IMG/VR virus record: IMGVR_UViG_2681813268_000016
Coordinates: 1 to 12,547 of that record
DNA length: 12,547 nucleotides
Strand: one strand, 5' to 3'
From: a virus
Taxonomy: Duplodnaviria; Heunggongvirae; Uroviricota; Caudoviricetes
A program made the position numbers. Every line of letters begins with the position of its first letter. Within the stretch, counting starts at the first letter, position 1. Below, piece after piece: positions 9,001 to 12,547 of this stretch.

Positions 9001-12000
9001 GAACTCAAAAGAAATGGCGTCGTTGATAAAACTGGTCACACCTGGTTTCTGGCTGGCGAAGGTGAATCCCGGGTAACCGAAGAGCGGCCAGTAAAATCTG
9101 AAGCACAGGATATGCTGACCGGGGAGGTCGAACAAAAAGTTACCGCCGACATGATGATTGAGTTTATCGGTCAGGATGGGGCTAAAACGTGTGAGGAACT
9201 GGCGGGTAAGTTCGGTGTCAGTACTCGCAAGGTTGCTTCCACGCTGGCGGTGGTAACCGCAACGGGGCGGCTGGCACGCGTTAATCAGAACGGTAAATTT
9301 CGTTACTGCATGCCGGGCGATAATTTACCAGCAGAGCCGAAAGCCGCGCTGGTAACGGAAAGTGATGGTAAGGCCTTTCCTCAGCCAGCAGGTGCTGCGT
9401 TACCAGTCCGGGAAGCCGCAACACAGGAAGAAATTAAAACAGAAACTGTGGCGGACATTGTGCAGCCGTTGCCATCGTTTACCGAAACGCAAGCAGATGA
9501 GCTGATTTTTCAGTCCCTTCGCAGGGCAAACCTGGCGCTGCGCAGGGCGAAAAGTGATGTTCAGAAGTGGGAGCGAGTCTGCGCCGCGCTGCGGGAGCTG
9601 AACAAGCACCGGGATATTGTTCGACAGATTACTGATTCTTCCCGCCGTGTTGTATCGGAAAAGTGATTGCCGGAGGCGCTTATGGCAAAAGTATTTACAC
9701 AAGAAGAGCGGGAAAAAATTAAAGGGCTGATCGTGGAATTCGTACGCCTTAACGGACGAGGCACGATTCGGCAGTTATCGGATGAAATTGGTGTCAGTCA
9801 TGCGTCTGTCGGTCGTTTATGCATGGAGCTGGCCGCCAGTGGTGATGTTTACAATTCCGGTTACGGAGTATTCCCGTCTGAGCAGGCGCGCAAGGACTGG
9901 CAAAACGCCCGCAAAAAACTCTCAAGGGCAAAGCTGAAGAAACCATCTGTGGTTGATCCGGACCTTATCTGGCTATTACCAGACGGCGAAATACGCCGCT
10001 ACGACAGGCGCCTAAACATAATCTGTCGCGAGTGCCGGAAGAGTGAAGCTATGCAGCGTGTACTGGCTTTCTATCAGGGTAATTTTCAGGAGACGGTACT
10101 GTGAGTGAAATTAGCTATCAGGCTTCAATTACCGCTGGCATTCGCATCAAAGGAGAGGAGCATGGAAATAAAACCAGAAGATGAGTTAAGCAATATTGTT
10201 TTATTTCCGGTAAAAGAGGATAACCCTCGTAATCAGGTTAATTTTCTTTATGAGCCATCGGAAAGACCATATTGCCATCACGCTTCTGTCCGGGTTGACG
10301 AAAAAGAGCGTCAGGTCCGCTGTAAAATCTGCGGTGCGGTTGTGGAGCCGTTTGACTGGATGCTCTCTGTGGCAAAAAGAGAAACCAGACTGGCAGATGA
10401 TGTAAGGCTATTGCGCCAGGAGGAACAGGAAAGGCGGAAAAATATAGAAAAGTTAATTCAGATTGAGCGTAACGCGAAAGCGCGGATACGCAGGGCGACA
10501 AAATCCAGAACTGAATAATTAAATTTAGCACTGTAAATAAAATCAAATCCTTAACCGGAGGGATTTCTGCACCCTCAGAACATCAGGAGGCCGTCCGAAA
10601 GGGCGGTAGTGAAATGCGAAAATTCAAAATAATTATTGAAACGGGAATAGCCGGTGGAGATTTCGAGGATGAATTCGAAGTGGATGATGATGCAACACCA
10701 GATGAAATACAGGATGAAGCTAAAGATATTTTCTTTAACTACTGCAATTACTCATACCACGAAATAAAAGACGAAGAGGAAGAACAAAATGGCTGATTTT
10801 GGTTCAACTAAATATAACGCCAGTTTTGAAGAATGGCATGAACTGTTAATGGATTATGCAGAGTTACGCGGTGGAAGTGCCGCTGATGCTGAAGCATGGC
10901 GTGATGATTATGAAGCAGGGAAAACACCGGTCGAAGCATATTGTGATGAGTGGGGCGATGAATGAGCGAGATTAATTATCAGGAAGGGCATGAAAAGGCA
11001 GGGCAGGCAAAACCAGTGGCATGGCGATATCGCTACGTGAAAAAAGGCGTTACGGACTCTCAGGGGGAGCCGTGGGTTGGTGACTGGAAATATGTACCGA
11101 CAAAAGAGGATTGCAACGACAGGCCGAGCTATGAGATTCAGGTCTTATTCACTGTCCCGCCTGTGCCACTGACACCAGAAGGATTGATTAAAGCAGTGCG
11201 TTTCTATGAACAGGTAAAGCGTGAGAATCCGCCAGTCGAAACCGGAGCATGGAAAGACGCTGTTGACTGGGTGCTCAAAGAGGCTTACCAGGCTGTAAAC
11301 ATTGGTACCAAAGGAGATTGATATGACCACTTTTACCGACAAAGAACTGATTAAAGAAATCAAAGAGCGCATAGGCAGCTTGGACGTTCGAGACAATATT
11401 GAGCGCCGTGCTTATGAAATTGCTCTGGCATCGCTGGAAGCAGAGGCAGTTATGTTCTGTATATCAGGACAAAATGTAGATTCAGAAGAACATGTATCAA
11501 CCAGCAAAGCGGTTGTTGATGCCTGGGTTGAAGAATGGAATCAGGTTGACGGAAGTCCTGGCGAACCACTGTACAAAACTATGCCACTCTACTATCACGC
11601 TGCCTTGCCAGCGCCGGTAGTGCCGGAAGAAGCAACTCCGGAAAATGTAGAAATGCTCTCTGGCTATGTTTCCACGTACAAATTAACCGATAGCGAGCGC
11701 GATATTGCTGCCGAAATATGGAACGCCTGCCGCGCCGCTATGCTTCATGGGAAAGGAGAGTGATATGGCAACTTTAACAAAAAAAGAACGGGCATGGTTG
11801 AACGAATTACAGGACGTTCTTGATCGCTGCCCATCACCGAAAAAAATTGGTTTTTACACCATTGGCGATAAAAGCATTTACCTGTATGACCTGCGCCGCA
11901 TGGATGAAATCATGGAGGCTCTTGATAATCGTTCGTCGATGGATTGGTGTGTTGCTGTTCATGATATGAATGCAGGGTTTGATGAAAAGATTTTGTTCCC

Positions 12001-12547
12001 CTCATCAGTTGAAAGCACTGCGGGTTAAGGAGTAACACATGACCACTATTACCAAAGAACGTATTGAATTGTTCATTAAAAACCCGCTTGAAAACGGGCT
12101 TACCCGTGGTGAACAAATGGAACTGGCACGGATTGCGCTGGCATCGCTGGAAGCAGAGCCGGTTGTGTTCTGGTTTGAAAAATATCAAGAAGGGGCTACG
12201 GCATGACGACTTTTACCAGAGAGCAGTTAATAGCTCACGCAGAGGAGACTATTGAAGCACAGAGACTGTGCATACCGGGTACAATCGACCATGACATCAT
12301 CCGCACATATAAGATGGATATTGCTGTTCTGGAAATCGCACTGGTATCGCTGGCAGCAGAGCCAGCCGGTAAATTGCATGAATACAAACCAGTGGGATAT
12401 CAGCGTCTGGTCGATGAGTTAACCATGCTGGTAAAGCAGTTAACCTGGCAACTGAGGAAAGCGAAGCCAGACTGCAAATTACCGGATAAGGCGATGAGTT
12501 ATCTGGAGCGGAACGGACTGATAAGCGTGGAGGATATTTTACGATGA

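Follow-up and report, generated by a model that had tools for sequence, protein, structure and literature searches.

Botstein's modular theory holds that lambdoid phages exchange modules at short conserved sequences. Their mosaicism has mostly been described gene by gene, and its molecular joints have seldom been pinned down. In the T-even phages, as Tetart et al. reportedly found in 1998, tail-fibre adhesin domains are swapped via recombination between conserved motifs. Relaxed recombination by Red and Rad52-like recombinases has been documented in lambdoid phages (PMC2327257, PMC3945230). Red-beta's MEPS (minimal efficient pairing segment) is 23-27 bp. Among lambdoid accessory genes, mosaicism of ea22 in Stx phages has been published (PMC10834534, PMC7093339), and Ea22 is a tetramer with a long central coiled coil and pro-lysogenic activity (PMC10834534).

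The window analyzed here is a stretch of 12,547 nt from a tailed phage, a lambdoid prophage of E. coli (IMG/VR record IMGVR_UViG_2681813268_000016). ORF1, ORF2, ORF3 and ORF 10962 of the window (Table 1) are members of a mosaic family that is large and uncatalogued. It consists of accessory genes carried by enterobacterial lambdoid phages and ranges over Escherichia, Shigella, Salmonella, Enterobacter and relatives. ORF1, ORF2 and ORF3 share a short, nearly invariant in-frame island, here called the joint, which is probably, on the evidence of sequence comparison, a domain-boundary site at which homologous or microhomology recombination produces crossovers in a shuffled accessory-gene family. 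As in lambdoid modular exchange, unrelated flanks meet at short common sequences, the length of which is close to the Red-beta MEPS. Unlike in that exchange, the joints lie inside genes, in frame and at domain linkers, so that domains and not whole genes are shuffled; furthermore, one gene has several joints, and many of the exact runs fall short of the MEPS. Similarly to the T-even adhesins, short conserved in-frame motifs bracket hypervariable segments and serve as crossover points, although the adhesins are structural host-range proteins with a known selective driver, whereas the family described here consists of small early or accessory proteins. The arrangement is a clear case of domains being shuffled at a conserved linker and does not constitute a new kind of system; mosaicism of ea genes is already known.

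Relationship to EaA and Ea22

The archetype of the family is P22 EaA (NP_059588, 317 aa) and not Ead/Ea22. Like ORF2, EaA starts with leader B followed by the joint (MTTITKERIELFVKSPLENGLTRGEQMELAR-IALASLDAETV); the ORF2 N-terminus is homologous to EaA residues 1-42 (peptide MTTITKERIELF(I/V)K..), and P22 eaA DNA is 91.9% identical to window positions 12024-12158 (135 nt). ORF1 and ORF3 resemble EaA in the start heptapeptide and in the joint alone, and their leaders differ from its own. The cassette order is likewise the same in EaA, namely leader, joint, body, an LYAAPPVP linker and further domains; however, EaA carries a dATP/dGTP pyrophosphohydrolase domain (PF04447) and DUF551 (PF04448), neither of which is present in the window ORFs.

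The sequence-only reading had suggested that the window genes may be Ea22-like. This assignment does not hold, because PF13935 (Ead_Ea22) finds no match in ORF1, ORF2, ORF3 or ORF 10962 even at E ≤ 10 (gathering score 27 bits; positive controls, 100.9 bits for lambda Ea22 and 73.1 bits for P22 EaD), and the named relative is P22 EaA. In addition, profile-profile comparison of lambda Ea22 with the alignment of the N-terminal module gave a probability of 0.15%. Lambda Ea22 and P22 Ead (PF13935, IPR025153) nevertheless resemble the family in being early accessory proteins whose N-terminal part is common and whose C-terminal domains, DUF551 among them, are interchangeable. Some genuine PF13935 N-domains end in ..ASLEAEPV or ..LEAEAV ahead of the ORF1 body, and ORF 10962 has an Ea22-type start, which resembles lambda Ea22 over residues 1-23 only. 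Since the bodies and even the joint are common to some genuine Ead/Ea22-like proteins, it is right to speak of one gene pool. The N-terminal parts are different, being a predicted hairpin of ~45 aa with a hypervariable leader in the window genes and a domain of ~100 aa with a long coiled coil in Ead. The genetic locations also differ: eaA lies in the early-left region beside int-xis and ead/ea22 in the exo-xis interval of that region, whereas the window genes follow the replication genes. They lie on the + strand, after the O-like, DnaC-like, DUF1627 and DUF977 genes and ahead of hokD, rusA and Q. In the Stx phage ArgO145, the syntenic block sits in the early-left region.

The Repeat and the Genes That Carry It

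The three ORFs noted earlier at 11323, 12039 and 12203, which start with MTTFT or MTTIT, are all present as described, and the near-identical segment of ~42 bp is real. Copies 1 and 2 of the joint are identical at 37/42 positions and constitute the top-scoring 42-mer pair of the entire 12.5-kb window, whereas the best pair in shuffled controls (200 mononucleotide and 200 codon shuffles) never exceeded 28/42, which places the self-alignment well beyond that of shuffled sequence. The longest exact run between the two copies is 21 nt, and the encoded motif is IALASLEAEAV in ORF1 and IALASLEAEPV in ORF2. Copy 3, for which 12335-12369 had been given, matches copies 1 and 2 at 27/42 and 29/42 positions, respectively, with exact runs of only 8-9 nt. 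Taken alone, this identity is no better than that of the best shuffled pairs and would suit chance similarity; however, copy 3 lies in frame at the equivalent protein position and keeps the codons CTG..TCG CTG..GCA GAG, so its description as a more diverged copy stands. For the block as a whole, chance is rejected outright, given the 37/42 match against at most 28/42 in the 400 shuffles and the occurrence of the motif in hundreds of homologs.

Table 1. Coordinates of genes, islands and modules in the window.
Feature	Coordinates	Strand	Description
ORF 10962	10962..11321	+	119 aa; same mosaic pool; Ea22-type start MSEINYQ...; missing from the sequence-only reading
ORF1 start island	11310..11343	+	SD, overlapping stop of upstream gene; ATG ACC ACT TTT ACC GAC AAA
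ORF1	11323..11763	+	146 aa; MTTFTDKE...; leader type A, joint, body MFCISGQNVDSEEH...
Joint copy 1	11419..11460	+	IALASLEAEAVMFC; 21-nt exact core 11425-11445
ORF1 Pro-rich linker	11584-11628	+	PLYYHAALPAPVVPE
ORF1 terminal module	11719-11760	+	WNACRAAMLHGKGE
Start island of intervening ORF	11752..11789	+	82% identity to ORF1 start region, 38 nt (D2)
Intervening ORF	11765-12028		87 aa; MATLTKKE; phrog_1714; start island, no joint
ORF2	12039..12206	+	55 aa; MTTITKER...; leader type B (P22 EaA type), joint, HNH tail
Joint copy 2	12132..12173	+	IALASLEAEPVVFW; core 12138-12158
ORF3	12203..12547	+	114 aa; MTTFTREQ...; leader type C, diverged joint, body
Joint copy 3	12335..12376	+	diverged; core 12341-12361, two non-synonymous differences
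ORF3 C-terminal cap	12416-12547	+	reused

Four parts follow one another in every gene, namely a conserved start, a hypervariable leader, the joint and a variable body. The start island comprises the SD sequence and the first 5-7 codons (repeat families D2/D3; consensus ATG ACC ACT ATT ACC AAA GAA after the SD). Genes with unrelated leaders keep it, whereas upstream of the SD the sequence is unconserved even for the same leader; the island is also found in the intervening ORF, which lacks the joint. The leader is 31-59 aa long; the 24-50 residues between the start codons and the joint are hypervariable and reassort independently. The joint itself has the consensus ATH GCN CTG GCA TCG CTN GAA GCN GAG CCN GT (peptide IALASLEAEPV), and two further linker islands downstream in the genes also separate cassettes. 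Consequently, the earlier view of the flanks as unrelated is correct around the block, with the exception that the gene starts carry a second common island, and the supposed conservation of the N-terminal ~50 aa narrows to ~7 codons at the start and a joint of 9-11 aa.

The cassettes of the window recur in other arrangements. The ORF1 body is found behind leader B and other leaders as well as behind PF13935 N-domains, and in one protein (P0246) ORF1 is extended into DUF551. The ORF2 tail (12159-12206) consists of the final 15 codons of a gene for an HNH endonuclease: ORF2 residues 31-54 match the HNH family phrog_2118, and the C-terminus of the ArgO145 gp11 HNH protein is identical to the tail. 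Counterparts of this HNH-tail hybrid exist with leaders A and D; ORF2 is the commonest single variant among viral contigs (31 copies) and is fused in frame with ORF3 in P0361. The ORF3 body also follows leaders B, F, H and I, and the ORF3 cap occurs on many longer proteins, including DUF551 proteins. A further hybrid (P0377) has MATLTKEE, the start type of the intervening ORF, attached to leader C. ORF 10962 has a junction at ..AKPVAW (about 11010-11024); its body PVAWRYRYVKKG... comes after IALASLEAEP(V/I) in P0170 and L005, and its C-terminal module GLIKAVRFYEQ..., preceded by a PVPLTPE linker (about 11160-11180), lies behind an APVVPE linker in P0327 and P0341.

The three same-orientation copies in 1.2 kb would also fit a tandem duplication in the prophage followed by divergence, the block being the slowest-evolving remnant. 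Such local paralogy is scarcely credible, because each leader and body recurs elsewhere in new combinations with 90-99% DNA identity, the ORF2 tail derives from an HNH gene, and the flanks are unalignable rather than graded. The earlier designation as a paralogous family is oversimplified, in that ORF2 consists of a leader, the joint and an HNH tail.

Reassortment and Breakpoints at the Joint

Across the joint, leaders are combined with bodies almost independently. A set of 155 unique contexts from public phage contigs, which are not phylogenetically independent and, in IMG/VR, include many near-identical prophages, fell into 31 left and 52 right clusters in 105 combinations, with 122 four-gamete quartets across the joint and an adjusted mutual information between leader and body of 0.16. 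There are 49 body types after the joint, 11 of which occur behind both leader A and leader B. For genes with the same leader and different bodies, identity is 0.9-1.0 up to the block and ~0.3 from position +29; for those with the same body and different leaders, the profile is reversed and switches at position 0.

The same boundaries are visible in megablast comparisons of the window with other phages. Homology starts at 11323, 11418/11419, 11752, 12024/5 and 12120-12123, and ends at 11423-11445, 11629, 11744, 12058-61 and 12148-12163, and the breakpoints are located in the joint, the start island or the two further linker islands. Approximately 35/60 sampled matches start exactly at 11323, and within ORF 10962 homology begins at 11174-11176. 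At the block, where a survey of related prophages for recombinant junctions had been proposed, homology breakpoints lie at 11418-11445 and 12120-12163. These population patterns fit the earlier proposal that C-terminal domains are exchanged at the block, and it is from them that we infer recombination. The block is common to otherwise unrelated accessory genes; the shared functional module once suggested is a putative role.

Predicted Structure and a Model for Exchange

In the AF2 model of ORF3 (mean pLDDT 79.2), helices span residues 6-23 and 30-51 (pLDDT 85-95), with residues 45-51 ending helix 2 and residues 52-63 forming a lower-confidence linker. The ORF1 model is poor (pLDDT 49.7) and usable for secondary structure only; in it, helix 2 stops at residue 39, within the block. 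In these models, the joint coincides with the predicted end of helix 2 in an N-terminal hairpin and with the beginning of a linker. A Foldseek search with the ORF3 model against PDB and BFVD returned generic helical hairpins only, none at E ≤ 0.001. By analogy with tetrameric Ea22, the hairpin may tentatively be seen as an oligomerization or adaptor domain that presents variable effectors, among them DUF551 and dATP/dGTP pyrophosphohydrolase, early in infection or from the prophage. A motif (LxE) for T4-type prohead-protease cleavage or for capsid targeting was considered and dropped, because the genes belong to an early operon. In ArgO145, it is a different, neighboring ORF that bears the annotation "released from the phage upon host infection."

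A probable model is that the short in-frame islands (start, joint and further linkers) separate interchangeable cassettes. The joint would encode the last turns of helix 2 and the Pro that opens the inter-domain linker; a crossover within it would therefore always be in frame and join intact domains. Exchange would take place by homologous, homeologous or microhomology recombination inside a 21-33-nt island, mediated by RecA or a phage Rad52-like recombinase acting between co-resident or co-infecting phages, and would keep the island homogeneous within one phage pool. Because the peptide closes the hairpin, it would also be under strong purifying selection. No Rad52-like recombinase gene is visible within the window. 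The 21-nt run between ORF1 and ORF2 falls short of the Red-beta MEPS, and among pairs with unrelated flanks, a sample that is biased upward, the exact run has a median of 15 nt, with 28% at ≥23 nt and 3.7% at ≥31 nt. Moreover, selection for in-frame, folded chimeras would gather surviving junctions at the domain boundary under any recombination mechanism.

Conservation of the Core

The invariance of the peptide raises the question of whether protein constraint suffices. If the hairpin needs IALASLEAEPV, illegitimate recombination could occur anywhere, only in-frame boundary junctions would survive, and DNA identity would be irrelevant. This explanation accords with the location of the joint at a predicted helix end and linker, and the amino-acid motif does not vary even where host pools differ at synonymous sites, so that protein-level selection alone explains much of the conservation. 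However, codon usage predicts far less uniformity than is seen at the synonymous sites of the core CTGGCATCG. Among 108 unique contexts, collected with a fully degenerate pattern since an exact 21-mer cannot inform on synonymous sites, homozygosity at CTG-GCA-TCG is 80-93% (CTG 0.93, GCA 0.91, TCG 0.80), against 20-26% expected from codon usage in the same genes (0.24, 0.26 and 0.20, respectively), and TCG represents only 8% of the Ser codons in family genes. The adjacent Ile, Ala, Pro and Val are equally conserved as residues, yet the homozygosity of their codons is at expectation. In addition, core haplotypes track the host genus and not the leader or body type: Escherichia and Shigella have CTG/GCA, Enterobacter, Trabulsiella and relatives have CTC/GCG over different leaders and bodies, and unrelated leaders and bodies in one host pool thus have common haplotypes. 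Junctions, too, lie inside common nucleotides and are not scattered nearby. Protein constraint as the only explanation is therefore unlikely.

The sharply bounded island of synonymous conservation, containing the rarest Ser codon, could instead point to a cis-acting nucleic-acid element, for instance a structured RNA, a site bound by a protein or a signal dedicated to recombination. We consider this very unlikely. The region has no Rfam match (only DicF occurs elsewhere in the window), RNA folding of the copies is no better than that of shuffles (z = -1.1, -0.3 and -0.6) and the predicted structures differ, promoter- or terminator-like sites are not in excess, and copy 3 of the window carries two core substitutions. 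Neither a site-specific recombinase nor a reverse transcriptase is nearby, the phage integrase being the only dedicated enzyme of this sort within the window, and all copies per locus are direct. Programmed variation by shufflons, diversity-generating retroelements or invertible cassettes was rejected on the direct orientation of the copies in 37/37 multi-copy loci; the region has a single inverted repeat, of 13 nt. A Chi-like site was also rejected, as direct reading of the sequence gives GCTGGAAG in the block and not GCTGGTGG.

A stronger version of the crossover model, which we regard as improbable, is that the 21-nt core (CTGGCATCGCTGGAAGCAGAG and its host-pool variants) is selected as DNA itself, as a dedicated shuffling site, making the ea/nin genes a cassette system. 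If so, combinations of leader and effector would be constantly renewed in the course of an arms race against hosts or competing phages, in a manner comparable to antigenic-variation minicassettes, and the leaders would be specificity determinants that, for example, block cross-oligomerization of co-resident paralogs. Such a role of the leaders is supported by the rarity of the same leader type within a locus (1/45 within-locus pairs, against 11% of between-locus pairs).

The family supplies a sharply defined, very abundant intragenic in-frame joint with near-free reassortment, and is therefore a convenient natural system for studying the in vivo homology needs of phage and host recombinases and domain shuffling without introns.

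Annotation and Distribution of the Family

ORF1, ORF2 and ORF3 match phrog_5117 (1.3e-43), phrog_3323 (1.3e-19) and phrog_660 (8.2e-43), respectively, and ORF 10962 also matches phrog_660. Each of the three profiles also picks up the N-terminal part of the other two ORFs, and the PHROG families concerned (phrog_5117, 3323, 660 and 60) are all without functional annotation. Searches of ORF1-3 against Pfam, NCBIfam and PADLOC gave no match, the best sequence match in PDB had an E-value of about 0.4, the module of leader plus joint has no model in Pfam or NCBIfam, and a full-text literature search for the motif strings found nothing. The names given in databases are inconsistent ("Ea22," "EaA," "valyl-tRNA synthetase" and "dTDP-6-deoxy-L-hexose 3-O-methyltransferase"), and PGAP annotates only the first 127 nt of ORF1, as a pseudogene. 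Recognition of the family could mend the pseudogene call, the missing module models and the names.

The profile search with the N-terminal part, which the sequence-only reading had proposed, yielded 533 cluster representatives (50% identity, E ≤ 1e-3), in agreement with the expectation that homologs share the motif. Among the 150 matches listed, nearly all cover residues 1 to ~44, in proteins of 50-442 aa. With a fully degenerate back-translation of IALASLEAE, all matches in viral contigs were genes of the family, and their unrelated leaders numbered more than 20. DUF551 is present in 33/96 family representatives and PF04447 in 2/96. Some part of the 1.6-kb region occurs in 3611/5426 complete E. 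coli genomes, and the 48-nt block was found by megablast in at least 763 E. coli genomes, an undercount because an exact 28-nt word is required. Proteins of the family are very common in the prophages of pathogenic E. coli, Stx phages included.

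Family of the three genes

ORF calls confirmed the MTTFT, MTTIT and MTTFT starts of three small genes (ORF1, ORF2 and ORF3, respectively), as well as a common peptide motif, which is IALASLEAEAV in ORF1, IALASLEAEPV in ORF2 and a third version in ORF3. The underlying segments, termed joints here, match at 37 of 42 positions between ORF1 and ORF2; this is the top 42-mer pair of the entire window, and the above-chance similarity was upheld, the best shuffled pair reaching no more than 28/42 in 200 mononucleotide and 200 codon shuffles. The third copy is, as the sequence-only reading had it, more diverged (27-29/42 against the other two); its DNA identity alone is not significant, yet the copy keeps both frame and register. 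A second common island (the start island) comprises the SD and the first 5-7 codons, and the intervening ORF 11765 has this island without the joint.

Pfam, NCBIfam and PADLOC contain no model for the ORF1-3 proteins, and PHROGs places them in unknown-function families whose mutual overlap is confined to the N-terminal part. A profile built from the three N-termini and scanned against 1.84 billion cluster representatives recovered the anticipated homologues, 533 proteins at E<=1e-3; among the 150 matches listed, the aligned part is nearly always residues 1 to about 44 and protein length ranges from 50 to 442 aa. Among 96 family representatives, DUF551 is present in 33, a dATP/dGTP pyrophosphohydrolase domain in 2 and an Ead_Ea22 domain in none. 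The suggestion that these are Ea22-like proteins was not borne out: every window ORF fails the Ead/Ea22 Pfam test, which lambda Ea22 and P22 EaD pass. The named archetype is P22 EaA, in the order leader B (one of the variable leaders between start and joint), joint, PF04447, DUF551. The Ea22 pool is nevertheless connected, since some true PF13935 N-domains finish in ..LDASLEAEPV or ..LGELEAEAV immediately before the ORF1 body (the variable part after the joint), and ORF 10962, the upstream neighbour, joins an Ea22-type start to a body that comes after the joint in other proteins. In the 197-aa protein P0301, a leader-A start is joined in frame through the normally untranslated 5′ region of an Ea22-like gene (..FCGEASQRRQPVSKIDYQ..), and this protein therefore combines an MTT start with a PF13935 domain.

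Cassette architecture

In the family sequences read, two frequent leaders, A (MTTFTDKELIKEIKERIGSLDVRDNIERRAYE) and B (MTTITKERIELFIKNPLENGLTRGEQMELAR), both finish in IALASLEAEPV and are then followed by many unrelated sequences; identical body types are found after either leader. Two scans of IMG/VR contigs, one for the exact 21-mer core of the joint and one for IALASLEAE back-translated with full degeneracy, returned family genes only. Over 20 leaders that cannot be aligned with one another, 31-59 aa in length, occur in these contigs, and all of them begin M-(T/S)-(T/E)-(I/F/L)-T-(K/R)-E and finish in ..ELAR, ..LFK or ..AYE ahead of the joint. Because these leaders lie between start and joint, the conserved unit is not the N-terminal module of ~50 aa proposed earlier; instead, two conserved islands surround a hypervariable cassette, and variable bodies follow. 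Islands also recur downstream, namely PLY..APPAPVVPE, WNACRAAML(Q/H)G and a reused C-terminal cap, ELTMLVKQL...ISVEDILR. The GLIKAV module of ORF 10962 comes after the APVVPE linker of ORF1 in protein P0327.

Features of the window and make-up of the family genes
Feature	Position	Strand	Joint	Evidence or make-up
Integrase	1-1119	-		Pfam/ORF calls; excisionase also present
823-aa protein	1419-3890	-		Rv2179c-like 3′-5′ exonuclease domain (Pfam)
DicB-domain ORF	4171-4464	-		Pfam/ORF calls
DicF antisense sRNA	4534-4585	-		Rfam RF00039, 72.5 bits
cI-like repressor	5733-6506	-		Pfam/ORF calls; cro and YdaT also in window
O-like HTH protein, DnaC/IstB-like ATPase				Pfam/ORF calls
DUF1627, DUF977, zinc-ribbon protein, DUF7167 genes				Pfam/ORF calls
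ORF 10962	10962-11321			Ea22 start, PVAW body, GLIKAV module
ORF1	11323-11763	+	11419-11460	Leader A, joint, MFCISGQ body, APVVPE linker, WNACRAAML end
ORF2	12039-12206	+	12132-12173	Leader B, joint, final 15 codons of HNH endonuclease gene
ORF3	12203-12547	+	12335-12376	Leader C, diverged joint, short body, cap

ORF2 and ORF3 (12039-12547) form one continuous 167-aa frame in some genomes, with two tandem leader-joint modules, and other proteins likewise have two modules in tandem; P0361, P0164 and P0227 are proteins of these kinds. Among 37 loci with several copies (from L004-L208 and the window), all copies within a locus have identical orientation. Leader type is almost never common to two co-resident genes (1 of 45 within-locus pairs vs 11% of random between-locus pairs), a weak signal (p about 0.03, loci not independent) that would fit either the avoidance of long direct repeats or a selective advantage of distinct leaders.

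Reassortment across the joint

In 155 unique contexts of 267 nt, the 78-nt flanks on the two sides were clustered separately. The survey of relatives is in line with exchange at the block: 31 left and 52 right clusters occur in 105 combinations with 122 four-gamete quartets, and the adjusted mutual information is 0.16. Where two contexts share the leader but not the body, per-position identity is 0.9-1.0 until the block and drops to ~0.3 from +29 to +34; where they share the body but not the leader, the profile is the opposite, with the change at position 0. By megablast with the window as reference, phage homology begins at 11323, 11418/9, 11752, 12024/5 and 12120/3 and stops at 11423-11445, 11629, 11744, 12058-61 and 12148-63, which are the start islands, the joints and two downstream linker islands.

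Thus, the block is probably a joint at a domain boundary, where co-resident or co-infecting lambdoid phages recombine and so swap leaders and bodies in frame. Selection in favour of chimeras that fold would likewise concentrate surviving junctions at the joint. In an AF2 model of ORF3 from 110 homologues (mean pLDDT 79.2), residues 1-50 (pLDDT 85-95) form a hairpin of helices 6-23 and 30-51, and the joint (residues 45-55) is predicted to be the end of helix 2 and the beginning of a lower-confidence linker. The ORF1 model is poor, with a secondary structure that agrees with ORF3, and fold searches returned nothing beyond generic hairpins. Ea22 is tetrameric (PMC10834534); by analogy, the hairpin might be guessed to be an oligomerising or adaptor unit that presents variable effector domains.

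Synonymous sites in the core

In 108 unique contexts collected by a degenerate pattern that leaves synonymous sites unconstrained, the core codons are much more uniform than expected from the codon usage of the same genes (homozygosity 0.93 vs 0.24 for CTG, 0.91 vs 0.26 for GCA and 0.80 vs 0.20 for TCG, the rarest Ser codon of family genes at 8%). The neighbouring Ile and Ala codons on the left and Pro and Val codons on the right, whose amino acids are conserved to the same degree, are at expectation. In species-representative genomes there are two main core haplotypes, CTG..GCA in Escherichia and Shigella and CTC..GCG in Enterobacter, Trabulsiella, Pseudescherichia and relatives, each spanning different leaders and bodies. 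This pattern would be expected of a core that is shared, often exchanged and homogenised within a phage pool, between flanks that represent old allelic classes. No support was obtained for a cis-acting RNA or DNA element in the core.

Published values for the minimal pairing length, 23-27 bp with Red-beta and 31-34 bp with RecA (PMC3945230), place the island at the edge of usable homology. Since the exact run between ORF1 and ORF2 is 21 nt, and at least 23 nt are reached in 28% of unrelated-flank pairs, exchange would likely proceed by relaxed Rad52-type or microhomology events (PMC2327257, PMC3945230). It is already known that ea genes are mosaic, that DUF551 domains are portable and that recombination can occur at short conserved sequences; no description was found in the literature of this precise joint, the two-island architecture with a hypervariable leader, the synonymous-site signature or the quantification of reassortment across the joint.

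Prophage setting

Pfam and ORF calls identify the window as the early region of a Qin/Rac-like lambdoid prophage of E. coli, and the DicF RNA together with the DicB-domain ORF implies a Qin-type dicB/dicF cell-division inhibition cassette. The 823-aa ORF occupies the usual site of recombination genes in lambdoid phages; its sole Pfam match is the C-terminal Rv2179c-like 3′-5′ exoribonuclease domain (residues 642-813), and its first 640 residues are acidic, of low complexity and without annotation. The family genes belong to a small plus-strand gene string after the DUF1627, DUF977, zinc-ribbon and DUF7167 genes, and the string is nin-like in position, because in near-identical E. coli chromosomes it runs on into hokD, DUF968, rusA and the Q antiterminator. 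Stx phage ArgO145 has, in its early-left region, a matching order (zinc ribbon, DUF7167, 58-aa ORF, Ea22-like gene, ..., HNH, ORF3-like gene), its positions 2562-5212 being syntenic with 10105-12547 of the window from the zinc-ribbon ORF to ORF3. As the block lies early-left in ArgO145 and downstream of the replication genes here, this accessory block moves as a unit between the two early operons.

Annotation and probable assembly artefacts

In NZ_CP033762, PGAP covers no more of ORF1 than its first 127 nt, exactly leader plus joint (window 11323-11449; locus L001 6424-6550), and calls this stretch a pseudogene "missing C-terminus". The 146-aa frame is intact, with a 99% identical homologue (P0245), and the call is an annotation artefact of mosaicism. 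E. coli-type family genes also occur on short contigs of non-enterobacterial assemblies, namely L222, L242 (Segatella copri MAG), L298 (Collinsella MAG), L254 (Bacillota MAG) and L327 (Haemophilus sputorum, 584 nt); peptide contexts and block sequences are as in ORF1 and ORF2 on L222 and as in ORF1 on L298. The most likely explanation of these contigs is mis-binned or contaminating phage DNA of E. coli. Unrelated database names on family proteins, such as "valyl-tRNA synthetase" and "dTDP-6-deoxy-L-hexose 3-O-methyltransferase," look like propagated mis-annotations.
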